The notes under the pieces: generated by a model
The model's database searches: none
Told to the model about the DNA's origin: nothing
Seen by the model: the letters and a program-made list of their open reading frames with translations, nothing else
Assembly: GCA_035500755.1 (NCBI GenBank)
Contig: DATJXB010000067.1
Span: 36,023-100,022 of the forward strand
Reading direction: 5' to 3'
DNA from: Thermoanaerobaculia bacterium
Lineage (GTDB): Bacteria; Acidobacteriota; Thermoanaerobaculia; UBA5066; Gp7-AA6
DNA: 64,000 nt
Program-made: the position numbers and the translations under genes
Shown here: positions 21,051 through 44,054 of the stretch, one piece after another
Numbering within the stretch: the stretch's first letter is position 1
Layout of the letters: each line of letters begins with the position of its first letter

Positions 21051-23021
21051 ATGGCCGACGCCAATGACCGGATCCTCGAGGCCCTCCTGCAAGAGAAGCG
21101 CCAGTTCGCGCCTCCCAGGGATTTCGCGAAGAAAGCCAACGTTTCGAGCCCGGCCGTGTACCGCAAGGCCGACCGCGCGTTCGCGAAATTCTGGGAAGGC
21201 TTCGCGAAAGAGCTCGACTGGTACAAGCCCTGGAAGAAGGTGCTCGACTGGAAGCCGCCGAAGGCGAAGTGGTTCGTCGGCGGCAAGCTGAACGTCTCGG
21301 TCAACTGCGTCGACCGGCACCTGAACGGTCCGCGCAAGAACAAGGCCGCTCTCGTCTGGGAAGGCGAGCCGGGCGACCAGCGGACCTTGACCTACCGCGA
21401 TCTTTACCGGGAGGTCGGCAAGTTCGGGAACGCACTGCGTAAACTCGGTGTGAAGAAGGGCGACCGGGTCACGCTCTATCTGCCGATGATCCCGGAGCTG
21501 CCGATCGCGATGCTCGCCTGCGCCCGCATCGGCGCGATCCATTCGGTGGTCTTCGGCGGCTTCTCGGCCGAGTCGCTCCGGGACCGGATCAACGACCAGG
21601 GCGCGAAAGTCCTCGTCACCGCCGACGGCGGCTGGCGGCGCGGCAACGTCGTCCCCCTGAAGCAGATCGCCGACGAGGCGCTCCAGAACACGCCGTCGAT
21701 CGAAGCGGTCGTCGTCGTGCGCCGCACCGGGACGCCGATCCAGTTCAACGAGGGCCGCGAGCACTGGTGGCACCGTCTGATGGAGGGCTCTCCGATCCCG
21801 TGCAAGCCCGAGAAGATGGACGCCGAGGATCCGCTCTACATCCTCTACACGTCCGGCACGACGGGGAAGCCCAAGGGGATCCTCCACACGAGCGGCGGCT
21901 ATCTGGTCGGCACGTACGCGACGTCGAAGTGGATCTTCGACTTGAAAGACGACGACGTCTACTGGTGCACGGCGGACATCGGCTGGGTCACCGGCCACTC
22001 GTACGTGGTCTACGGGCCTCTGGCCAACGGCGCGACGTGTCTCATCTACGAGGGCTCGCCCGACACGCCGGCGCGCGACCGGTTCTGGGATCTCATCGAG
22101 CGGCACGGCGTCACGATCCTGTACACGGCGCCGACGGCGATCCGCGCCTTCATGAAGTGGGGCACCGAGTGGCCGGCGAAGCACGACCTTTCGTCGCTGC
22201 GGCTGCTCGGCTCGGTCGGCGAGCCGATCAACCCCGAGGCCTGGATCTGGTACCAGAAGTACATCGGCGGCGGGAAGTGCCCGGTCGTCGACACGTGGTG
22301 GCAGACGGAGACCGGGATGATCCTGATCTCGCCGCTGCCCGGGATCACGAAGACGAAGCCGGGATCGGCCACGCGCGCGTTCCCGGGCATCGAGGCGAAG
22401 ATCCTCGACCTCGCCGGCAAGGAAGTCAAAGTCGGCGGCGGCTACCTCGCGATCACGCGTCCGTGGCCCGCGATGCTGCGCACGATCTGGGGTGACGACG
22501 AACGCTACGTCAAGACCTACTGGTCGAAGTGGGGCAAGGACGTCTACTTCCCGGGCGACGGGGCCAAACGAGACGCCGACGGCTACTTCTGGCTCCTCGG
22601 CCGCGTCGACGACGTGATGAACGTCGCGGGGCACCGGATCGGCACGATGGAGGTGGAGTCGGCGCTCGTCGACCATCCGTCGGTCGCCGAGGCGGCGGTG
22701 GTCGGCGTGTCCGACGAGATCAAGGGCACCGCGATCGCCGCCTTCGTCATCCTCAAGGAGCGCGACAAGACCGCGGCGGCGCACGCCGACAAGGGCCTCC
22801 ACGACACCGTCCGAAATCACGTTGGGAAGAAGATCGGCGCCATCGCCAAGCCCGACCGCCTCTTCTTCGTCTCGGACCTGCCGAAGACCCGGTCCGGCAA
22901 GATCATGCGGCGGCTCCTGCGGGACATCGCCGAGGGCCGCGTCCTCGGCGACACGACGACCCTCGCCGACGCCAACGTCGTCGCCGCGCTCAAGAGCCAG
23001 TACGAGGAGAAAGAGGGATAG
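21051..23021 (+). CDS. acs: Acetyl-CoA synthetase (AMP-forming)
   Basis: In-frame ATG at 21051 ([22 protein letters not shown]...) within table ORF 20961-23021. Full-length match to the Acs pattern (...TYRDLYREV..., [33 protein letters not shown]). Confidence 0.9.
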
Positions 23022-26529: not shown

Positions 26530-27657
26530 TCACGAGTTCAACCCCTGGCGCAGCTCCCGGGCGAGGATTTCGACCCCCGACCGGGTTCCGCCCGTGAGCT
26601 TTTCCTTCCAGATGGTCTCGGTCTCGAACCGGCGGTCGCCGATCGACTCCGCCCACGGGCGCAGGGCGGCGTCGAGCTCGCCCGCCGACCAGACGTCCCC
26701 GCCGCGCTTGCGGACCATCGCGATCACGTAGGGCACGATCCGGATGAAGGCCCGCAGCGAGGTCGAGCTCTTGATCGAGTACTTGCGGCCGGCGAAGGCG
26801 GCGGGGAAGGCGCGGGCCGCCGCCTTGAAGTAGTTCAGGAAGAAGCGCCGTGAGTTCTCGCGGAACTCCCGGGCGATCCGGCCTCCGGCGGTGTCGATCG
26901 CCGCGAACACGTCGCGCAGCTCGTCGGCCAGCGAGGCCTGGGTCACCGAGCCCTTGCCGATCCCCAGCACCTTGATCGAGCCCTTCAGGGGCGAGCCCTC
27001 GTCCTCGTTCAGGGTCCGGATGACGTCGTGGGCGGCGGCCAGGTTGTCGTCGCGATAGAGCCGGCGGCCCGCCAGCGAGATCAGGTGCGACGGGTTCAGT
27101 TTCGTGTGCTTGCTGTTGATCGTCACGAAGAGCTCGACGACCTGGTCGGCCGTCAGGCTGTCGAAGACGACGGCGGGGACCTGGAAGTCCTTCAGGCTGT
27201 GCTTCTCCGCGAGCTGGTGCAGCGCGAGAAGCCGGTGCTGGCCGTCCAGGGCGCGGAGGATCCCGGACTCCTCGGGCAGCTTCAGCGACCCGGCGTCGGA
27301 CCGTCCGCTCGACGGGGAAAACTCCAGGCGCTTCTCCGACACGAGGAGAACGCTTCCCGGAATCGCGGGCAGCGTGCCGGAGTCGGCGCACTGCAGGTAA
27401 TAAGCGACGAGCTCGTCGATCTTCTTCTTGATGATGGGGCGCTGGAAGGCCTGCTCCGAGGCCGAGATCTTCCGTTCCAGGAACTCCCAGTTCACCCGTC
27501 CCGCCGCGACCTTCGCGTGGCCCCGCGTCGTCTGGCTGCCCGGCCCGAAGGAGAGGACCTCGAAACCCACCAGCGACTGGAGGTCCTCTCCCGACAGGAG
27601 AGCCTCGTAGAAGCGCACGCCGAACTGATTCAGGCGGAGCGAGGGAACCGAGATCAT
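26530..27657 (-). CDS. DGQHR-domain protein (DndB-like, ParB/Srx-fold)
   Basis: ATG with GGAGG RBS (MISVPSLRLNQFGVRFY...). Signature ...LRALDGQHRLLAL... plus ...FVTINSKHTKL... The upstream 172 codons of the table ORF are not coding. Confidence 0.75.
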   Translation of the reverse strand: MISVPSLRLNQFGVRFYEALLSGEDLQSLVGFEVLSFGPGSQTTRGHAKVAAGRVNWEFLERKISASEQAFQRPIIKKKIDELVAYYLQCADSGTLPAIPGSVLLVSEKRLEFSPSSGRSDAGSLKLPEESGILRALDGQHRLLALHQLAEKHSLKDFQVPAVVFDSLTADQVVELFVTINSKHTKLNPSHLISLAGRRLYRDDNLAAAHDVIRTLNEDEGSPLKGSIKVLGIGKGSVTQASLADELRDVFAAIDTAGGRIAREFRENSRRFFLNYFKAAARAFPAAFAGRKYSIKSSTSLRAFIRIVPYVIAMVRKRGGDVWSAGELDAALRPWAESIGDRRFETETIWKEKLTGGTRSGVEILARELRQGLNS

Positions 27658-28193: not shown

Positions 28194-28952
28194 GTGAAAA
28201 GCGCTGTTTTAGGGCTCCTGACGCTCGCCGGAGCAGCCGTGCTCGCCGCCTCGCCGGGCGACGAGCGGGTGTACGCCTCGCACCTGATGGTGGATCAGGA
28301 AGTCACGGTGGCGGCCCGCATCACGGGCATCATCGACACGATCCTCGTCGACCGCGGCAGCGCCGTGACGCAGGGCCAGGTGCTCGCGACGCTCGAGGCG
28401 AGCGAGTACGACGCGGCGATCCGGCAGGCCAGGGAAGACATGGACCTGAAGAAGATCGAGTACGAGCGGGCCGAATCGCTGGTCTCCTCGAGCGTCATGA
28501 GCGCCCAGGATCGCGACGAGAAGAAGGCCCAGTACCAGGTCGCCGTCGCGACGTGGGAGCGGGCCAAGGCGGTGCGCGACTACACCGTCATCCGGGCGCC
28601 CTTCGCGGGGATCGTCACGGAGAAGTACGCGCGCCTCGGCGAAAAGGTCATCGAGGACAAGAACGACCCGCTCTTCAAGATCACGGCGGTCGAGCCGCTG
28701 CTCGCCCGCGTGTACCTGCCGGAGGAGCAGCTCCTCCGGGTCAAGGTCGGGGACCGCGTCGAAGTGGTCGCGGATCGTTTCCCCGACGTGAAGACGAGCG
28801 GCGAGGTGCAGTTCGTCAGCCCGACCGTCGACGCCGCGAGCGGCACCTTCCAGGTGGTCGTGCGCGTCCGGAGGGACCCCGCCCGCACGGTGCTCCGGCC
28901 GGGCCTCGCCGTTCAGGTGCGATTCGCCCAGCCCGCGGCCGGGACGCGGTAA
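28194..28952 (+). CDS. HlyD-family / RND-type periplasmic adaptor (membrane-fusion-protein-like), short form with N-terminal signal anchor
   Basis: GTG start (VKSAVLGLLTLAGAAVLAAS...), then the biotin-lipoyl-like motif ...VAARITGIIDTILVDRGSAVTQGQVLATLE...IRAPFAGIVTEKYARLGE..., a short alpha-hairpin and a beta-barrel domain. No cognate pump gene adjacent. Confidence 0.7.
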   Translation: MKSAVLGLLTLAGAAVLAASPGDERVYASHLMVDQEVTVAARITGIIDTILVDRGSAVTQGQVLATLEASEYDAAIRQAREDMDLKKIEYERAESLVSSSVMSAQDRDEKKAQYQVAVATWERAKAVRDYTVIRAPFAGIVTEKYARLGEKVIEDKNDPLFKITAVEPLLARVYLPEEQLLRVKVGDRVEVVADRFPDVKTSGEVQFVSPTVDAASGTFQVVVRVRRDPARTVLRPGLAVQVRFAQPAAGTR

Positions 28953-28968: not shown

Positions 28969-29669
28969 ATGGCCGGAAAGCCGCGCTCCTCGGCCCGTCT
29001 GCGCACGACGCTCGACCGGGTCCTCGTTCACGACGTCAAGAACGTTTCCTTCCGCCTGCGGCTGCTGCTGTCCAATCTCGACGAGCACTGGGACGATCCC
29101 CAGTTCCGGGAGACCGTCAAGGAGCTGCTGGCTTCGACGGTCGAGCGCCTCGAGCAAGCCGTCGGGCGGCTCTCGACCGACGAGGACGCCGTCCTCATCA
29201 AGGTCTCGCTCGACGTCAACGGCCTGATCCACGAGGTCGTCGCCCGGCCGCCGCGGCGGCAGCGTCCCGGGGCCCGGGCGGCCCCGGCGCGCCTCGCCCT
29301 CGGACAGGTGCCCCGGATCTGGGGCGACCCGTTCTACCTAGGCGACGCCTTCGCGAGCCTGCTCGAGAACGCGGCCGAGGCCGCCGGTCCGGACGGCCGG
29401 GTGCTGGTGCGGACGTTCGCGACGGGCTCCGGCCGGCGCGCGCGCGTCGTGGTCGAGGTCATCGACAACGGATCCGGGATGACCCAGGAATTCCTGCGCG
29501 ACCGCCTCTTCCGGCCGTTCGAGACCACCAAGCCCGAGGGCGTCGGGCTCGGTCTGGCGACGGCCAGCCAGATCGTGCGCTTCCACCGCGGGACGATCCG
29601 GATCCTGTCGCAGCCGGGCGGCGGCACCCTCGTGCGCTGCGCGTTCCCGGCGGCCGCGGAGGCCTCGCC

Positions 29670-29673
<4 letters not shown>
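28969..29673 (+). CDS. Soluble sensor histidine kinase (HisKA + HATPase_c, essentially no sensor domain)
   Basis: 234 aa: H-box VLVHDVKNVSFRL; ATP-lid motifs ...ENAAEAAGPDGRVLVRT...VIDNGSGM...GVGLGLA. Confidence 0.8.
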
Positions 29674-31040
<1,367 letters not shown>

Positions 31041-31163
31041 GTAGATTAATTATTCAACCGACGGCGAGTTAATTTTTCATCCTCCCGGTATCGTGGGAAA
31101 GCGACCAGGCCGTAAACATCTGAAAGATAAAGATCAGATTAGAGACGCCGAGCCACGGCAGGC

Positions 31164-31179
31164 TGGCCCCGGTCTTGCG
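31164..31179 (+). promoter_or_regulatory. Sigma-54 (-24/-12) promoter for the repeat-peptide gene
   Basis: TGGCCC-cggtc-TTGCG versus consensus TGGCAC-N5-TTGCA. GG and GC elements at correct spacing. About 11 nt from the implied TSS, about 30 nt upstream of RBS/ATG. Directly downstream of the sigma-54 activator gene. Confidence 0.65.
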
Positions 31180-31209
31180 ATGAACGCTGGCCAGGAGGGA
31201 AGAAATCAA

Positions 31210-31554
31210 ATGGCCAACGAAGTGAAAATCAGACTGACGGACGCCCAGAAGGCGAAGATCAAGGAAGCCACTGGGAAGGACCTTCCGGAGATTCACGTCG
31301 AGAGTTTCGGCTCCACGCCGGCGGTTTCGGCGCCCGCTCCGAGCGCTTCGCTCAAGTCGGCGAAGTCGATGCGCGCGGCGAAGTCGCTCCGCGCCGCCAA
31401 GTCGATGCGCGCGGCGAAGTCGCTCCGCGCGGCGAAGTCCATGCGGTCGGCCAAGTCGATGAAGGCGGCGAAGTCGATGCGCTCGGCCAAGTCCATGCGC
31501 TCCGCCAAGTCGATGCGCTCGGCCAAGTCGATGCGGTCGGCCAAGTCGCTCTAA
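31210..31554 (+). CDS. Small secreted-peptide-like protein: 48-aa N-terminal region followed by ~11 tandem basic hexapeptide repeats (AKSMRS/AKSLRA)
   Basis: ATG at 31210 with RBS AGGAGGGAAG 7 nt upstream: MANEVKIRLTDAQKAKIKEATGKDLPEIHVESFGSTPAVSAPAPSASLKS(AKSMRA)(AKSLRA)...(AKSL). Table ORF 31093-31554 is the same frame with a longer, RBS-less start. A rho-independent terminator follows. Confidence 0.7.
   Translation: MANEVKIRLTDAQKAKIKEATGKDLPEIHVESFGSTPAVSAPAPSASLKSAKSMRAAKSLRAAKSMRAAKSLRAAKSMRSAKSMKAAKSMRSAKSMRSAKSMRSAKSMRSAKSL
31351..31554 (+). repeat. Tandem 18-bp direct repeat (~11 units, consensus GCSAAGTCGATGCGCKCG), in-frame within the peptide gene
   Basis: Units begin at 31360, 31378, 31396, ... 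Each encodes A-K-S-[ML]-[RK]-[AS]. Not CRISPR: no unique spacers. Confidence 0.9.
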
Positions 31555-31573
31555 TCCCGGTCCGAAGCAGGAA

Positions 31574-31603
31574 CGCCCCGCTTCGGCGGGGCGTTTTTTT
31601 TTG
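31574..31603 (+). terminator. Rho-independent terminator after the repeat-peptide gene
   Basis: gccccgc-ttcg-gcggggc followed by a 9-T run. Confidence 0.75.
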
Positions 31604-31699
31604 CGGTTCTAGCGGCGGCTCGACGCCGCCGAACAGGAGCAGGCGGCCGCTACCGACCAGCCCATGGTTGTGGCGCGGCCTCGCGGGGAAGAGTCGCCG

Positions 31700-33853
31700 C
31701 TACCACCAGATCACGGTCTGGAGCCAGTGGCGCAGGACGCGCCACGAGCGCGACAGAAACGAGCGCCGGCCGAGCGAGATCTTGGCGTGCCCGGTCATGC
31801 CGGGCAGATAAGCGCCATCGGGGTTGTCGAAGGCGACGACCGCCACGAAACGCTCCGGCAGGTCGCGCGCCCGGAGCGTCTGCGTCGTGCCGTCGGCGGT
31901 GTGGGGCAGCTCGTGCGCCGCCGCGCCGACCTGGACGATGCGTCCTTCGAGGATCCGCGCGGGTCTCGCCCTCAGCTGCATCGCCACCGGTGCCCCCGGG
32001 TGCAGGTAGGCGAGCAGGCGCTCGGAGACGGGAATCTCGGCCTTCAGTCGGTCGCACTCGCCGACGCGCGCGATGACGGCACCGGCGGGAACGAAGCGAT
32101 CCGCCAGGTCCTGGGTTCGGCGGGTGAGCAGGCGCCCGGCGATGGGGCTCTCGACCGAGAGGCGCCGCAGGCGATCCTCCTCGCGGGCGAGCGCCATCGC
32201 GGCGGCGACCTCGCGGTTCTCGGCGTGGAAGACACCCTGGGCGTCGGCGGCGTCGCGCTGCCGGCTCGTGCGCTTGCGCGAGGCGTCGCGGACGGCCGAG
32301 GCGCCGGCGAATCCGGACGCGACGTCGGGGCTGTCGAGGACCGCGACGACGTCGCCCATCTTCACGCGGTCGCCTTCGCGGAAGCGCACGGCGACGATCG
32401 TGCCGTCGTCGGGCGCCTGGATCGCCGCCTCGGTCCAGGGTTGCAGCTCCGCCTCCGTCTCCAGTCTCCACGGCGCCCAGGGCACGATCAGTGCCAGCAG
32501 GAGGACGGCCCCTCCGGCGACGAGAGCCGTCCGGGATCGACGGGACATGAGCAACTCCTTCTTGTCGAGGTAGAGGAGGCGGAGGCCCTGGAGGAACGCG
32601 CGGACGTCCTTCCGGAAGAGGCGCAGCAGCGTCAGGATCAGGAGAACGAGGGCGACGTGGGGGAAGTATTTCGCGTAGAAGTTGTAGAAGAGCTTCGCGA
32701 GGAACACCATGATGAAGACGGTGAACCCGAGGGCGAGCGGGGCGTAGACGAGGAAGATCCGGCGCTTGCGCCGCGACAGGACCGGCACCTCGACGTTCAG
32801 GCGCAGGACGTGGCGCTTGAGCAGCGCGCCCAGGTACTCGATCGAGTCCTCGCGCAGCTCCGGGATCTCGAGGACGCTGCACAGGGCGTGGTAGCCGTCG
32901 ACCTTGCGGAGCGGGTTGATGTTGAAGAAGAGCGTGGAGATGCCCGTGAAGAGCATCAGCTTGTACGCGAGCTCGTGAAGCAGCGTGTCGGGGTACGACG
33001 CCACCCAGGCCGCGACCGCGAAGCTGCAGATGATCGCCTCGATGTACATGCCGGCCAGCACGACCCACAGCCGGTGCCACTTGTTCTGGAAGAGCAGCGC
33101 GTCGGTCGTGTCGCAGTAGAACGCCGGCATGAAGTAGAGCAGCGCGACGCCGATGTCGTGGACGTCGCCGCCGTAGAACTTGCAGACGTAGCCGTGCGCC
33201 ATCTCGTGGATCAGGCCGATGCCGCAGAGGATGACGAAGAACTGGACCGCGTCCCAGAACGGTTTGCGGAGAAACGCGTAGAGCTCGAGTGTCTGCTCCC
33301 AGATCGGGCCGAAGTGCCGGACGATGACGCCGGTCATCAGCGCGATCATCACGAGCGACACGGCGACGGTGGCGGGGCGCCAGATCCAGCGGACGTACTT
33401 CTGGGTCCGGTTCATGAACTCGTTCGGGTCGAAGACGTGGAAGGGGATGAGGAAGATGTCGAACCCTTCCGCCTTCTGCTCCGCCGTCCGGCGACGCGCG
33501 TCCTTGATCCAGTTCAGCTGCTCGAGGTTGCGCTCGACGGAGGACTTCTCGAGCAGGTCCATGTTCCGGAGAGACTCTTCGTACTCCGGGACGAGCGAGG
33601 CCTCGATCGGCTCGGTGAAGCGGGCCTGGTACGCGTCGTGGATCTCGGACAGAGTCCGCGTTCCGTCGAAGAGCTTCATGAGGTCCCAGGTGGCCTCGTC
33701 GAAGCTGTAGTACTGGGTCCGGTCGGGATTCTTGACGACCCAGTTGACCTCGCCCATCTGAACGACGCGGCGAATGACGAGGTTGCTCTTCAACCGCGGC
33801 CGGCCGGTCGAGCCCTTCTTGAACGCGGCCAGGGGAGCCGCGCCCGACTCCAT
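31700..33853 (-). CDS. Three-part fusion: N-terminal PqqD-like RiPP-recognition-element (RRE) domain, site-2-protease (peptidase M50) polytopic metalloprotease, C-terminal HlyD-like periplasmic domain
   Basis: C-terminal 717 aa of table ORF 31700-35161 (MESGAAP... start; MGEVNWVV at 33757 is the alternative). N-terminus ...YYSFDEATWDLMKLFDGTRTLSEIHDAYQARF...VPEYEESLRNMDLL fits the PqqD pattern (LNETGAxIWxLxDGxRTVxEI...). HEXXH (LIHEMAHGYV) inside a TM helix plus NINPLRKVDGYH (NxxPxxxxDG), the S2P signatures. C-terminal ...GTIVAVRFREGDRVKMGDVVAVLD...SPIAGRL... is HlyD/biotin-lipoyl-like. The upstream part of the table ORF overlaps the GAF gene out of frame. Confidence 0.75.
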   Translation of the reverse strand: MESGAAPLAAFKKGSTGRPRLKSNLVIRRVVQMGEVNWVVKNPDRTQYYSFDEATWDLMKLFDGTRTLSEIHDAYQARFTEPIEASLVPEYEESLRNMDLLEKSSVERNLEQLNWIKDARRRTAEQKAEGFDIFLIPFHVFDPNEFMNRTQKYVRWIWRPATVAVSLVMIALMTGVIVRHFGPIWEQTLELYAFLRKPFWDAVQFFVILCGIGLIHEMAHGYVCKFYGGDVHDIGVALLYFMPAFYCDTTDALLFQNKWHRLWVVLAGMYIEAIICSFAVAAWVASYPDTLLHELAYKLMLFTGISTLFFNINPLRKVDGYHALCSVLEIPELREDSIEYLGALLKRHVLRLNVEVPVLSRRKRRIFLVYAPLALGFTVFIMVFLAKLFYNFYAKYFPHVALVLLILTLLRLFRKDVRAFLQGLRLLYLDKKELLMSRRSRTALVAGGAVLLLALIVPWAPWRLETEAELQPWTEAAIQAPDDGTIVAVRFREGDRVKMGDVVAVLDSPDVASGFAGASAVRDASRKRTSRQRDAADAQGVFHAENREVAAAMALAREEDRLRRLSVESPIAGRLLTRRTQDLADRFVPAGAVIARVGECDRLKAEIPVSERLLAYLHPGAPVAMQLRARPARILEGRIVQVGAAAHELPHTADGTTQTLRARDLPERFVAVVAFDNPDGAYLPGMTGHAKISLGRRSFLSRSWRVLRHWLQTVIWW

Positions 33854-33894: not shown

Positions 33895-36357
33895 TCACGG
33901 CAGCAGCGGCCAGAGCTTGAGCCAGAAGTAGCGCACGGGCTTGCGGAAGAGGGCGTAGCCGAGCGGTCGGGTCGCCGCCGCGACCTTTCCCGTGCCGAGC
34001 ATCCCGGGCTTCATCGCTTCGTCCGGGTTGTCGACGCGGGCCTCCGCGATGACGAAGCTCTCCTCGCCTTCCTGGCGGAGCTCCGCGCCGACGCGCTCGA
34101 CCCGGCCGCGGAACACGCGTGTCGGGTAAGGATTCATTTTCAGCGCGACCGGCTGACCCGCCTTGACCAGCGCGGCCTCGGCTTCGGGGACGGCGACTTC
34201 GGCGGTGACGCTGCCCAGATCGGCGACGATCGCGAGCTCCGCGCCGCGGGCGAGCGCCTGTCCGACGCGCTGCTCGACGTGCGGCGTGATCAGGACGCCG
34301 GCCGCCGGAGCGCGCAGAAGGGTCTTGGCGAGCTGCTCCTCGGCGAGCGCCCGCCGGGCCTTCTGCTCCTCGCACCGCGCGCGGGCCTCGAACATCGCCG
34401 CGGCGTCGCCCTCCTGGGTGTGCTGCGCGACGTCGCTCTCGGCGATCGCGAGGGCCGCCGAGGCCTCGGCCAGCGCGGCCCGGTAGGACTCGTCCTTCAG
34501 CGTCGCGACGACGTCGCCGGCGGCGACGCGGTCGCCCTCGCGGTGGAGGACCTCTTTGACGACGCCCTCGACGGCGGCCGTGATGGCGGCCCGGCGCGCC
34601 GGGAGCACGCGGACCGGCCCCTCCACGCGAATCTTCCACGGCACCGCGACAAGGGCGACCAGCACGATCCCCGCGCCGATCAGCCACGCCTGCCGCCGAC
34701 GGATCGGGATGTCGAGAAGCTTCCGGCGCTTCTCGAGCAGGGGGGCCAGGAACCCGGCGAGCGGGACCTGCTGATAGAGCTGGGCGTTGCGGACGGCGAC
34801 GGTGGCCTGGTTGACGAGGATCGCGAGCAGGTCGCGGTTCCCTTCGTCGAAGGCGAGGGGCTCGGCGCTCTCGAAGCCGAGCGCGCCGAGTTTTCCCTCC
34901 TCGTCCTTGAGGAGGACGCCGAAGAACGACTTGAGGCCCGTCTCGGCGAAGATTGCCCGGAACTTCTCGACCGTCTCCGGCCGCTCGGCCGTGATCTCGC
35001 CGTCCTCGGTCTGGGTGACGGCGACGTCGGTGCCGGAGAGGAAGACCCAGTTGAGCAGATCGTCCAGGCGCCGGACGTTCGGGTCCTTGCGGTCGATCTC
35101 CTTGGCCCCCGAGACGGCGCCGAGGCGGAACCGCCCCTTCTCGAAAATGCCGATGGCGCACCGGTCGTACGGGATCAGCGCGGACGTGGCGTTGACGACC
35201 GTGGCCATGACCTTGTCGAGGTCGAGGGTCGCCGTGATCTCGCGGCTGACGGCGAGCAGGGCGTCGAGCTCTTCGACCTTCTTCTCGGCCTCGTGCTGCC
35301 GCGCGGTGCGGAGCGCGCGCACCGCCTGGCGCGACAGGTCGGCGAGGAGCTCCTCGTCTTCCGCCGAGAACTCGGGGTGGCGGCCGCGCTTGTTGACGAG
35401 GACGAGCGCGCCCACGGGGATCTCGTCCTCCACGAGCGCGATGCCGAGCACCGAGCGCGCGAGGTAGCCGTCGTTCTCCGTGGCGACGGGATCACCTTCG
35501 GGGATCCGGTTGCGCCGCAGCGGCGCCTGGTCGGCCAGGAGGTCGCCGACGACCGGGCTCCCGACGGCCTCGGGCGCGTTCTCGACGTCGTAGTTCTCGT
35601 TGAGAGCGGTCGCGGCGAGCGTCACGTCCTCGCCGTCGAGCCGCCAGAGGGACGCGACCTCGGCGGTCAGGAAGTCGGCCGCTTTGCGCACGATGAGGTC
35701 CGAGAGCTCTTGCTCGTCGATGGTCGACCCGAACGCCTTCGAGAGGTCGTAAAGATTCGTCAGGCGCTCGATGGCGTGGAGCATGCCGACGGTCTTGCGC
35801 TCGGAGCGCAGGGCCCGGCCGAGGGCCGGCGCCGCCTGCTCGAGAAAGCGCTCGAGCCGCGCGAGCGCCTCGTCGGCGTCGGGCATCTCGGTGAAAAAGA
35901 GCGCCAGGAGTCCGACGACGAGGTTCTCGGCTTCGAGCGGCACCGCGAGGCACGCGCGGAAGCCGGGCGGCAGGCCGCGGACGAACGGGTCGCCGTCCGT
36001 GAGCTCCGCACCCGTCAGCACGATCGGCTGCCGGTCGCGGACGAGGTCGTGGACGAAACCGGTCTCTCGAGGCGCCGAACGCCTCAGGAATTTGTCGACG
36101 CCCTCGCCGGAGGCGCCGATGCAGAGAAAGAGCGGGTTGACGGTGTCGGGCGCCCAGAGCAGCGTCGCGTCGGCGCCGGCCATGACCGTGCTCCACCGGG
36201 CCGCCCAGCCGGAAGTCTGGGACAGGTTCTCGCAGAGGGCCAGCTCGGCGAGCGCCGTGACCTCCGCCTCCGCCGCCGAGGTGTCGGCCTCCTCGGCCGC
36301 GTCGCCGTCCTCCCCGTCGACCGGTTCGTCCTCCGGATCCTCGGGTTCGTCCGCCAA
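33895..36357 (-). CDS. Acidic N-terminal tail + three GAF domains + TM + C-terminal HlyD-like periplasmic domain
   Basis: 820 aa: MADEPEDPEDEPVDGEDGDAAEEADTSAAEAE (acidic), three GAF-like blocks (ends ...VGLLALFF, ...VGALVLVNKRG, ...LGALGFESAEP), a TM helix (WLIGAGIVLVALVAVPW) and an HlyD-like domain (...AAITAAVEGVVKEVLHREGDRVAAGDVVATL...LRAPAAGVL...). Confidence 0.8.
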   Translation of the reverse strand: MADEPEDPEDEPVDGEDGDAAEEADTSAAEAEVTALAELALCENLSQTSGWAARWSTVMAGADATLLWAPDTVNPLFLCIGASGEGVDKFLRRSAPRETGFVHDLVRDRQPIVLTGAELTDGDPFVRGLPPGFRACLAVPLEAENLVVGLLALFFTEMPDADEALARLERFLEQAAPALGRALRSERKTVGMLHAIERLTNLYDLSKAFGSTIDEQELSDLIVRKAADFLTAEVASLWRLDGEDVTLAATALNENYDVENAPEAVGSPVVGDLLADQAPLRRNRIPEGDPVATENDGYLARSVLGIALVEDEIPVGALVLVNKRGRHPEFSAEDEELLADLSRQAVRALRTARQHEAEKKVEELDALLAVSREITATLDLDKVMATVVNATSALIPYDRCAIGIFEKGRFRLGAVSGAKEIDRKDPNVRRLDDLLNWVFLSGTDVAVTQTEDGEITAERPETVEKFRAIFAETGLKSFFGVLLKDEEGKLGALGFESAEPLAFDEGNRDLLAILVNQATVAVRNAQLYQQVPLAGFLAPLLEKRRKLLDIPIRRRQAWLIGAGIVLVALVAVPWKIRVEGPVRVLPARRAAITAAVEGVVKEVLHREGDRVAAGDVVATLKDESYRAALAEASAALAIAESDVAQHTQEGDAAAMFEARARCEEQKARRALAEEQLAKTLLRAPAAGVLITPHVEQRVGQALARGAELAIVADLGSVTAEVAVPEAEAALVKAGQPVALKMNPYPTRVFRGRVERVGAELRQEGEESFVIAEARVDNPDEAMKPGMLGTGKVAAATRPLGYALFRKPVRYFWLKLWPLLP

Positions 36358-38087: not shown

Positions 38088-38495
38088 ATGAAGAAGGGTG
38101 ACCTGACGACGAAGGCGATCGGGTTGGCGATCGCCGGCGTGCTCGCGGGCTCGGGCCTGGCGAGCGCGATTCCTGCCAAGAACGCGAGCGCGAAGACGAC
38201 CGCCGGCGACGAGAAGGCCAAGGACACGAAGGCCGCGTCGGACAAGCACGTCTGCAAGGGCCAGAACTCCTGCAAGGGCAAGGGCGGCTGCAAGAGCGGC
38301 GACGCCGGCTGCGCGGGCAAGAATTCCTGCAAGGGCAAGGGTGGCTGCGCCTCGGCCGACATGAAGCACTCCTGCAAGGGCATGAACTCCTGCAAGGGTC
38401 ACGGCGGCTGCAAGACGGGCGACGGCGGCTGCGCGGGCAAGAACTCCTGCAAGGGCAAGGGCGGCTGCGCGGTCCCGGTCAAGAAGGCGGCGTAA
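38088..38495 (+). CDS. Bufferin-like RiPP precursor (BUF_6/12Cys type): Sec signal peptide + 12-Cys core of four CKGxNSCKGKGGC-type repeats
   Basis: ATG at 38088 with RBS AAAAGGAG: MKKGDLTTKAIGLAIAGVLAGSGLASAIPAKNASA... then ...HVCKGQNSCKGKGGCKSGDAGCAGKNSCKGKGGCASADMKHSCKGMNSCKGHGGCKTGDGGCAGKNSCKGKGGCAVPVKKAA. Lower GC than flanks. Immediately upstream of the MNIO + DUF2063 genes. Confidence 0.75.
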   Translation: MKKGDLTTKAIGLAIAGVLAGSGLASAIPAKNASAKTTAGDEKAKDTKAASDKHVCKGQNSCKGKGGCKSGDAGCAGKNSCKGKGGCASADMKHSCKGMNSCKGHGGCKTGDGGCAGKNSCKGKGGCAVPVKKAA

Positions 38496-38505
38496 GTCGG
38501 ATCCG

Positions 38506-38535
38506 TTCTGCCCGGGGGTCCTCGCGGCCCCCGGG
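38506..38535 (+). terminator. Hairpin / candidate partial terminator (attenuator) between precursor and MNIO genes
   Basis: cccggggg-tcctcgcg-gcccccggg (perfect 8-bp stem) followed by a T-rich tract catttctcttt, in the 60-nt precursor-MNIO gap. Confidence 0.4.
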
Positions 38536-38555
38536 CATTTCTCTTTGACGACTCC

Positions 38556-39449
38556 ATGACCCCGAACGCTGCCTCCCGCGTCCCCGCCGTCCGGAACCGC
38601 TGGGGCTTCGAAGACCTCGGCATCGGCGTGGGCCTCCGGACCATTCACTATCCGCACATCCTCGAGAACCGGCCCGACGTGGACTTCTTCGAGATCCTCT
38701 CGGAGAACTACATGGACACGGGCGGCCGCCCTCTCTGGGTGCTCGACCAGGTCGCGGAGCGCTACCCGATCGTGATGCACGGCGTCTCGATGAACATCGG
38801 CAGCGCCGATCCGCTCGACCGCGAGCACCTGGCGAAGTTGAAAGCCCTCGCCGGGCGCACCAGGGCGCGCTGGGTGTCGGACCATCTCTGCTGGACCGGC
38901 GTCGCCGGCCGCAACACGCACGACCTCCTGCCGATGCCGCTGACCGAAGAGGCGCTCGCGCATGTGGCCGCGCGGGTCCGCCAGGTCTCGGAGATTCTCG
39001 AGCGCCCGCTGATGCTCGAGAACGCTTCGACCTACGCCGAGTTCGCGGCCTCCTCCATGCCCGAGTGGGAGTTCTTCGGTCGCCTGATGGAGGCGGCCGA
39101 CTGCGGCATGCTCCTCGACGTCAACAACGTCTACGTCAGCTCCTTCAACCACGGCTTCGACCCCGAGCGGTACGTGGACGCGATCGACCCGGCGCGCGTG
39201 ACGCAGTACCACCTCGCCGGGCACACCAACAAGGGCACGCACATCATCGACACGCACAACGACCACGTGATCGACCGCGTCTGGGAGCTCTACGCGCGGT
39301 CCTCGGCGAGGACGGGCAACGTCTCGACGCTCCTCGAGTGGGATGCCGACATCCCGGCCTTCGACGTCGTCCACGCCGAGGCCCTGAAGGCCCGCGCGCA
39401 CCGGCGCGCGGAGAAGAGGGACAAGAAGGTTGCCGCCGCCGCCTCTTGA
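38556..39449 (+). CDS. MNIO enzyme (DUF692, multinuclear non-heme iron oxidative enzyme; MbnB/BufB family)
   Basis: 297 aa: ...LGIGVGLRTIHYPHILENRPDVDFFEILSENYMDTGGRPL...YPIVMHGVSMNIGSADPLD...WVSDHLCWTG...LENASTY... match DUF692 blocks. Confidence 0.85.
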   Translation: MTPNAASRVPAVRNRWGFEDLGIGVGLRTIHYPHILENRPDVDFFEILSENYMDTGGRPLWVLDQVAERYPIVMHGVSMNIGSADPLDREHLAKLKALAGRTRARWVSDHLCWTGVAGRNTHDLLPMPLTEEALAHVAARVRQVSEILERPLMLENASTYAEFAASSMPEWEFFGRLMEAADCGMLLDVNNVYVSSFNHGFDPERYVDAIDPARVTQYHLAGHTNKGTHIIDTHNDHVIDRVWELYARSSARTGNVSTLLEWDADIPAFDVVHAEALKARAHRRAEKRDKKVAAAAS

Positions 39450-40278
39450 TCTCGGCCTGCCGCACTTGCAGCGGTGGATGCAGGCGGTGATCGAGCAGCC
39501 GGGCACCGTCGACGACGCGGTCGTCTCGCCCGCGGCGCGCCGCGAGCTCGACCCCGTCCGGATCGGCCGCGTGGTTCTCCCGTCGAAGACGCTCACGTCG
39601 GTCGAGCGCGTCGGCGTGTACCAGGGCATGTATCTCCTCCGGATGATCGAAGCGCTCGAGGGCGACTATCCGGCCGTCGCGCACTTCCTCGGCGACGAGG
39701 AGTTCGCCGACCTCGTGACCCGCTACGTCGCGGCGCACCCGTCGACGAGCTACACGTTCAACCGCCTCGGAAAGCGATTCCCCGAGTTCATCCAGGAAGC
39801 GCGCGGCGTCCGGAAGAAGGGCTTCGTCGCCGATCTCGCGCGCCTGGAGCTTTCCGTGACGGAGGTCTTCGACGCGCCCGAGTCGCCGGCGTGGCCGGAC
39901 GACGCGGTGGCCCGCCTCCCGAAGGAGGCCTGGGCGTCGGCCGTGCTCAAGCCGATCGCCGCGTTCCGGCTCGGGAGCTACGCCCATCCCGTCAACGCCT
40001 ACCTGCAGTCGGTCAAGGAGGAGAACCACGACCATCCGGGCGTGGGCCGCCAGGCGACCCGCGTCGTCGTGTGGCGCAAACGCTACGAAGTGTGGCGCCT
40101 CGAGCTCTCGAAGCCGGCCTTCGATTTTCTCGCCTCGCTCGCCAAGGGGCGTCCGTTCGGCAAGGCCGTCGTCGCCGCCGCCCGCGGCCTGCAGGGGAAC
40201 CCCGGCGAGCAGCTCTTCCGCTGGCTGCGCGACTGGGTCGCCGAGGGGATGTTCGAAGGCGTCCAGACGGCGGGCTGA
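39430..40278 (+). CDS. DUF2063-family protein (MNIO partner, BufC/MbnC-like)
   Basis: 282 aa, 20-nt overlap with the MNIO gene (translational coupling). N-terminal ...LPHLQRWMQAVIEQPG... conserved start of DUF2063. Confidence 0.8.
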   Translation: MPPPPLDLGLPHLQRWMQAVIEQPGTVDDAVVSPAARRELDPVRIGRVVLPSKTLTSVERVGVYQGMYLLRMIEALEGDYPAVAHFLGDEEFADLVTRYVAAHPSTSYTFNRLGKRFPEFIQEARGVRKKGFVADLARLELSVTEVFDAPESPAWPDDAVARLPKEAWASAVLKPIAAFRLGSYAHPVNAYLQSVKEENHDHPGVGRQATRVVVWRKRYEVWRLELSKPAFDFLASLAKGRPFGKAVVAAARGLQGNPGEQLFRWLRDWVAEGMFEGVQTAG

Positions 40279-44038: not shown

Positions 44039-44054
44039 TGGCACCCGCGTTGCT
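44039..44054 (+). promoter_or_regulatory. Sigma-54 (-24/-12) promoter upstream of the TonB-dependent-receptor-like gene
   Basis: TGGCAC-ccgcg-TTGCT, perfect match to TGGCAC-N5-TTGCW. About 50 nt upstream of AGGAGG RBS and the ATG at 44106. Confidence 0.65.

Follow-up and report, generated by a model that had tools for sequence, protein, structure and literature searches.

The cassette and its repeat-peptide gene

The analysed stretch of DNA (64,000 nucleotides, hereafter the window) contains a cassette of six conserved genes, and the spacer studied here separates the third of these from the fourth. In the numbering of the loci the window is L152, with an offset of 21209 between the two sets of coordinates (e.g., the first cassette gene, at 28239-28952, is 7030-7743 of L152). 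This first gene, on the forward strand, encodes an HlyD/RND-type periplasmic adaptor (TIGR01730, HlyD_D23/HlyD_3) and opens an HlyD-histidine kinase-bEBP operon. It is followed by a gene for a minimal histidine kinase of 234 aa (28969-29673, +), which has an H-box (LVHDVKN) and an HATPase_c domain (PF02518, E=1.3e-19), has neither a sensor nor a membrane-spanning domain, and shows similarity to the PrsK C-terminus. Since the kinase is sensorless, the signal would have to enter via a partner, possibly the HlyD adaptor or the triple-GAF HlyD protein described below.

The stop codon of the kinase gene overlaps the start codon of the third gene (29670-31040, +), which encodes an NtrC-family response-regulator bEBP of 456 aa. 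Its domains scored above gathering thresholds (PF00072, REC; PF00158, Sigma54_activat, E=9.5e-69; PF25601, AAA_lid_14; PF02954, HTH_8), the GAFTGA motif is intact at ~30342, and the Walker A motif GESGTGKE is present in the translation. The protein thus combines the features by which NtrC-family bEBPs are recognised (REC, AAA+ with GAFTGA, and a C-terminal HTH), and the closest solved structures are those of Aquifex NtrC1/NtrC4 and of ZraR.

The fourth gene (31210-31554, +) encodes a peptide of 114 aa that begins with MANEVKIRLTDAQKAKIKEATGKDLPEIHVESFGSTPAVS, a conserved leader of ~40 aa, and continues as SAKSMR-type basic tandem repeats. The remaining two genes are convergent to it, on the reverse strand. 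The first of these (31700-33853) encodes a fusion of a PqqD-like N-terminus, an M50-type HExxH intramembrane metalloprotease, and HlyD (NF041824, PF02163, PF05402). Its match to NF041824 (daptide_HExxH; E=4e-52) reached 177.6 bits, under the 300-bit cutoff, and all of its protease-family matches were below family cutoffs. The PqqD-like assignment (PF05402, RRE; residues 72-116) is faint, with 22.8 bits against a gathering threshold of 23.4. The fusion is likely to be a processing and export component for the peptide. The last gene (33895-36357) codes for an HlyD protein that also has three GAF domains and one transmembrane segment, as identified by domain search and synteny. The order and orientation of all six genes (HlyD+, kinase+, bEBP+, peptide+, M50-HlyD-, GAF-HlyD-) were kept in 65 of the 66 loci with long flanks. 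Among these six conserved genes we found no modifying enzyme of the kind that a RiPP cluster would have, and no ABC or RND pump. Immediately to the left of the cassette, and outside its conserved part, lies a DGQHR/DndB-like gene (26530-27657, -; TIGR03187, PF14072), a neighbour that suggests a DNA-modification or defence locus.

Related loci were gathered by alignment of the leader. A leader search of 1.84 billion representative proteins gave 80 matches, mostly short leader-carrying proteins. The complete set comprises 151 loci, nearly all from Acidobacteriota/Thermoanaerobaculia MAGs: 71 come from species-representative genomes (with a single exception, these carry the label of Acidobacteriota or Thermoanaerobaculia MAGs) and 80 from metagenomes. 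Together with the window, these yielded 136 distinct upstream regions and 124 different peptides (median length, 138 aa). The homologues share a near-invariant leader, M[AS]NEVKIKLTDAQKAKIKEATGKDLPEIRVESFGS.PAVS, in which 20 columns within residues 1-37 are invariant or nearly so, followed by entirely different basic repeats (e.g., KAMRAQ, KHLKHT, APRAN, AGAKAPTR). In the cores, A, R, S, K, and T are abundant (K+R, 22%; D+E, median 0%), and the tandem periods range from 5 to 18 residues (mostly 5, 6, 8, 9, 12, or 18). A conserved leader with a variable core is the pattern expected of a RiPP precursor. No Pfam or NCBIfam model matched the peptide family.

Two of the related loci, both of them metagenome contigs, carry tandem paralogous peptide genes ~800 nt apart (L129, with peptide starts at 34 and 809, and L132, with starts at 163 and 962; 0-based), and each gene has its own TGG-N8-TTGC (the motif described below) where upstream sequence is present.

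The -24/-12 element and the predicted transcript

The stop codon of the bEBP gene (31038-31040) and the ATG of the peptide gene (31210-31212) are separated by 169 bp. The first-pass annotation had described the tract before the promoter as strikingly AT-rich, and this description holds: the GC content is 0.46-0.48 over 31000-31149, compared with 0.66-0.78 in the flanking genes and ~72% for the genome. It had also placed a sigma-54 promoter, TGGCCC-N5-TTGCG with GG and GC at consensus spacing, about 30 nt before the RBS and ATG of the repeat-peptide gene. We recovered this element at the same position on the forward strand (31164-31179), with TGGCCC at 31164-31169, the spacer CGGTC at 31170-31174, and TTGCG at 31175-31179, and measured 31 nt from the C of TTGC to the ATG. 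The sequence TGGCCCCGGTCTTGCG agrees with TGGCAC-N5-TTGCW at 9/12 specified positions, and its GG and GC dinucleotides have the separation of 10 nt that is characteristic of sigma-54 promoters.

Judged on the window alone, the promoter match is weak and not significant: TGGC-N7-TTGC was found three times in the 64-kb window against an expectation of 0.95, and 7/100 shuffled sequences also reached three. It is more than a chance occurrence because TGG-N8-TTGC is fixed in the orthologous DNA, where 135/136 distinct upstream regions have it at most 100 nt from the peptide ATG; its background frequency, counted over both strands of the whole locus DNA, is 0.0086 per 100 nt. Even the sole exception, L022, has the motif with a spacer that is 1 nt longer. 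Position and spacing are thus conserved in the way expected of a functional sigma-54 promoter, and in the regions with TGG-N8-TTGC the distance between GG and GC is constant though the spacer between the bEBP and peptide genes mostly spans 143-246 nt. When the regions were anchored on the motif, information content peaked on cTGGCCC..tCTTGC and stood at background level on either side. Similarly, a MAFFT footprint of 87 spacers projected on window coordinates showed that the promoter bases are kept and that most of the remaining spacer drifts.

The distance from the C of TTGC to the ATG was 28-35 nt in 99 regions and 41-78 nt in the other 36, whose leader is longer and whose -12 element is TTGCA. 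These 36 group B loci (e.g., L046, L064, L137) also show purine-rich conserved stretches in the 5' UTR (GACCCAA..GGGAAA, GAAAGAGGAGG), and several of them have a forward IHF-like TTCTCAAnnnnTTGC at -38.

It is conceivable that read-through from the HlyD-kinase-bEBP operon, or a sigma-70 promoter located in the AT-rich tract, accounts for most transcription of the peptide gene, and that TGG-N8-TTGC has no promoter role. Sigma-70 promoters are typically encountered where a GC-rich genome becomes AT-rich, and this explanation would agree with the lack of significance of the promoter match within the window. In addition, we found no intrinsic terminator in the spacer that separates the two genes, and some read-through transcription is therefore possible. 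However, a scan of 30800-31800 gave no sigma-70-like site, and the explanation does not account for the GG and TTGC bases and their spacing, which are maintained in nearly all regions while their neighbours drift. We consider it quite improbable that transcription of the peptide gene comes about mainly in this manner.

If the element acts as a sigma-54 promoter, canonical geometry would place the transcription start at ~31190 (12 nt past the C of the -12 GC), which gives a predicted 5' UTR of ~20 nt (31190-31209, +) with a Shine-Dalgarno sequence, AGGAGGG, at 31194-31200. The predicted transcript would be monocistronic, with a length of ~400 nt, and would end at an intrinsic terminator at 31579-31603 (+).

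The conserved TGG...TTGC block could also be an RNA element of the 5' leader (e.g., one for translational control) instead of a DNA promoter. The block is close to the Shine-Dalgarno sequence, and in several orthologues the TTGCC region appeared, by eye, to be partly complementary to the bases before it. Yet what is conserved is a sequence with invariant spacing and not a set of covarying pairs, and the block would be situated upstream of the transcript if the geometry is canonical. The predicted fold of the 5' leader RNA has no significant structure (z = -0.40), and an Rfam search of 30900-31700 with a permissive E-value placed no family in 31041-31212; its sub-threshold matches fall only on the terminator hairpin. 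An RNA element thus seems extremely improbable to us, and in what follows we treat the block as the -24/-12 element of a sigma-54 promoter.

Sigma-54 binds promoters of the -24/-12 type and absolutely requires an activator with GAFTGA at an upstream enhancer; sigma-54 and its activators co-occur near-universally in diderm bacteria (PMC3162934). We did not find an RpoN box in six-frame translations of the 64-kb window and the 151 loci. Given the intact GAFTGA of the bEBP and the co-occurrence in diderms (PMC3162934), we infer that rpoN is present in the genome.

Predicted upstream activator sites and the IHF-like block

The AT-rich tract contains two direct repeats, TTAATTATTCAACC (31046-31059) and TTAATTTTTCATCC (31069-31082), which were 86% identical at 23-nt spacing in a repeat search. 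The first-pass annotation had noted these repeats as plausible activator or IHF binding sites and had suggested that conserved inverted repeats be sought among orthologous loci. The repeats proved to be real, and the search in the orthologues returned such a motif, GGTTGA-N5-TCAACC. Their interpretation as activator sites is supported; that as IHF sites is not, and the IHF-like block is a separate one further downstream.

Read against the orthologues, the direct repeats are the better-conserved right halves of two predicted tandem palindromes of 17 bp (GGTTGA-N5-TCAACC), the left halves of which are degenerate in the window. The putative distal upstream activator site (UAS), AGATTAATTATTCAACC at 31043-31059, matches this motif at 9/12 positions and is centred at ~-139 from the predicted start. 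The proximal UAS, GAGTTAATTTTTCATCC at 31066-31082, starts 23 bp after the distal one, matches at 8/12 positions, and is centred at ~-116. The distal UAS coincides with a conserved block in the MAFFT footprint, and the footprint also supports the proximal one. Shuffled controls sometimes reach 9/12 and 8/12 too, and the two sites of the window are convincing because of their position and their orthologues only, and not because of their own scores. A search of the window with up to 3 mismatches to the UAS was uninformative (35 matches against 13 expected, nearly all of them GC-rich coding sequences of the GTCGAC type).

Among the orthologues the pattern is much clearer. Two tandem palindromes directly follow the stop codon of the activator gene (e.g., GGTTGAATTCCTCAACC-CCGC-GGTTGAAAAAGTCATC in L014), and the best match to GGTTGA-N5-TCAACC was at least 10/12 in 108 of 135 regions, as against ~1% of shuffles. 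In 1.18 Mb of locus DNA we counted 85 copies at 11/12 or better, and all of these were 100-300 nt upstream of a peptide ATG, with none elsewhere. The motif is dyad-symmetric and specific to this promoter, and its distance is of the order expected for a UAS (~80-150 bp upstream), with the window copies at 9/12 and 8/12.

The placement of the sites is also constrained. Most of the 109 well-scoring pairs had a spacing of 19-24 bp between distal and proximal UAS. Counted from the T of TGG, the distal UAS started between -120 and -123 in 69 of the 109 pairs (-121 in the window). Besides the modal start at -121/-122, we observed minor peaks at -99/-100, -110/-111, -132, -143, and -154, i.e., in steps of ~11 bp. 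Of the 39 off-modal positions, 27-28 were in helical phase (p ~2e-5, a value that ignores shared ancestry). Such steps, and the constraint to one face of the helix that they suggest, are what looping of DNA between enhancer and promoter predicts.

The protein that binds the UAS is inferred to be the bEBP, as the sequence for its C-terminus immediately precedes the peptide gene in 126/136 loci. The contiguity of activator, promoter, and target that had been proposed for the window is thus a general feature of these loci. Taking the fixed TGG-N8-TTGC, its conserved bases, the palindromes and their phasing, and the adjacent bEBP gene together, the earlier sigma-54 reading is well supported, and it is very likely that the stretch at 31041-31212 is a real sigma-54 promoter with its own activator-binding sites.

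In the locus DNA, no UAS and no recurrent TGG-N8-TTGC were found before the other cassette operons (HlyD-kinase-bEBP and GAF-HlyD/M50-HlyD). With no UAS and no recurrent -24/-12 element there, we rejected autoregulation of the bEBP, or co-regulation of the export genes, from a similar site. The peptide gene appears to be the only local target of the activator, as far as the distribution of these motifs indicates.

The palindromes might instead bind another protein (another regulator, or IHF/HU), with the bEBP acting from elsewhere or from solution. The centres of the sites are A/T-rich, as nucleoid proteins prefer, which would be in line with this idea. Nevertheless, two tandem inverted repeats of 17 bp, about two helical turns apart, fit a dimeric HTH protein and not the asymmetric consensus of IHF, and a distinct IHF-like block is available downstream of them. 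The sites also co-occur strictly with the 3' end of the bEBP gene, at the canonical enhancer distance of -100 to -150 and with their helical phase relative to the promoter kept. We therefore give little credence to another protein at these sites and assign them to the bEBP.

Between the UAS and the promoter lies an IHF-like, bend-prone block, TAAACATCTGAAAGATAAAGA (31113-31133; centre ~-70), which was recognised from conserved columns of the footprint (AA at 31114-15, TGA at 31121-23, and AA at 31129-30). The expectation for an IHF-assisted promoter would be WATCAANNNNTTR in this interval; the window matches at 7/9 positions only, and in reverse orientation (TAAACATCTGAAA at 31113-31125 against the reverse consensus YAANNNNTTGATW, counted by hand). 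Matches of at least 8/9 were found in 30% of group A regions compared with 3% of shuffles, and matches to the consensus cluster at -51 (reverse) and -38 (forward). These results are suggestive of an IHF site, and the evidence is weaker than that for the UAS.

Regulatory model and comparison with known systems

We regard it as highly probable that the 169-bp spacer is a complete, enhancer-dependent sigma-54 promoter driven by the adjacent bEBP. Our observations concern the sequence elements, how these are conserved and phased, and how the genes are linked; the pairing of sites with protein, the start, the role of phosphorylation, the part played by IHF, and the inducing signal are proposals built on them. 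At TGGCCC-N5-TTGCG (31164-31179), RNA polymerase with sigma-54 would form a closed complex. The adjacent NtrC-type response regulator would receive its phosphate from the minimal histidine kinase co-transcribed with it, and dimers of the regulator would sit on the two tandem palindromes (31043-31059 and 31066-31082; centres ~-139 and ~-116). The bound regulator would then assemble into an AAA+ oligomer whose GAFTGA loop contacts sigma-54 via DNA looping, probably aided by the AT-rich IHF-like block at ~-70. Hydrolysis of ATP would open the promoter, with transcription starting near 31190, and the product would be a short monocistronic mRNA for the repeat-peptide precursor that ends at the terminator (31579-31603).

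The NtrC-activated promoters of the glnAp2 type in enteric bacteria, and the IHF-assisted nifH, Pu, and glnHp2 promoters, are the natural systems for comparison. The locus resembles these in its -24 GG and -12 GC at fixed spacing, in two tandem dyad-symmetric activator sites ~110-140 bp upstream, and in having, between these sites and the promoter, an AT-rich bend site (a candidate one here); as in glnAp2-type systems, the activator is a response-regulator bEBP with REC, AAA+ (GAFTGA), and a Fis-type HTH. It differs from them in several respects. The UAS is GGTTGA-N5-TCAACC, as opposed to TGCACC-N5-GGTGCA for NtrC and TGT-N10-ACA for NifA, and the -24 element of the peptide-gene family is TGGCCC in place of TGGCAC. 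The kinase has no sensor domain, and the target is a precursor of a small, presumably secreted peptide instead of a metabolic gene.

The best NCBIfam models for the kinase and the bEBP were those of PrsK/PrsR (TIGR02916/TIGR02915), the sigma-54 two-component system associated with XrtA/PEP-CTERM. The bEBP aligned over its full length to TIGR02915 (residues 8-455 against profile positions 1-443) with 439.4 bits, under the cutoff of 502.6, so that we describe it as PrsR-like and not as a member of that equivalog family. Similarly, the kinase was not accepted as PrsK, as it matched only the C-terminal third of TIGR02916 (profile 482-679) with 131.4 bits, under the cutoff of 300. No exosortase or PEP-CTERM gene was found among the scanned cassette genes.

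With regard to the peptide, the conserved leader with a hypervariable C-terminus recalls leader-plus-core systems whose peptides are processed by M50/HExxH membrane metalloproteases, such as the daptide protease (NF041824) and YydH/LiaK of epipeptides (NF058609), as do the neighbouring HExxH intramembrane protease and the PqqD-like N-terminus (faint here). In contrast to those systems, the cassette has no modifying enzyme, the core is a basic tandem repeat, and the protease is fused to HlyD, two more HlyD proteins occur beside it, and an ABC or RND pump is absent from the conserved genes.

The mechanism of the promoter is textbook; the peptide family and its cassette in uncultured Acidobacteriota appear to be undescribed, and searches of full-text literature gave no description of the peptides, of the cassette, or of sigma-54-controlled peptides in Acidobacteria. 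The promoter and the bEBP may constitute the dedicated switch of an undescribed peptide system that occurs across Thermoanaerobaculia. In this system, one gene, for a hypervariable polycationic repeat peptide with a leader, would be activated by the minimal kinase together with the NtrC-type activator, and the RRE-like/M50/HlyD fusion with two HlyD proteins would process and export the peptide without an ABC or RND pump. We propose this broader interpretation tentatively and judge its chances to be slightly below even. If it is true, the cassette would represent a new route to secreted peptides, possibly antimicrobial or signalling ones, and a strictly single-target UAS would make the switch directly testable with a reporter. 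The comparison of 136 lineages yields an unusually clean regulatory module, ready for experiments, from a class of Acidobacteriota that is uncultured, with a defined -24/-12 element, a new 17-bp activator motif unique to the promoter, phased enhancer spacing, and a single target. The module links a two-component system to one output, the hypervariable cationic repeat peptides, and could be moved to a heterologous host for peptide expression and study. In complete genomes, the UAS motif could serve to identify the regulon.

Several other features of the window and the related loci were noted. The other two matches to TGGC-N7-TTGC in the window are TGGCACCCGCGTTGCT at 44039-44054 (+) and TGGCGCTTCTCTTGC at 21089-21103 (-). 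The former is a better sigma-54-like sequence than the element at 31164-31179 (11/12 to consensus) and precedes the ATG (44097) of a 973-aa ORF by 43 nt, with a strong Shine-Dalgarno sequence, TAAGGAGG, in between; from its translation alone, the encoded protein was judged to be TonB-dependent-receptor-like. Twelve loci share a forward-strand TGG-N8-TTGC ~5000-5250 nt upstream of the peptide ATG, and the window has no equivalent match. Finally, at ~38088-40278 (+; L152 16879-19069), a 135-aa ORF is followed by MbnB/TglH/ChrH (DUF692, PF05114) and HvfC_N (PF09836) genes, a pair that is typical of methanobactin-like or heavy-metal-related peptide systems and that marks this region as a separate candidate peptide cluster.
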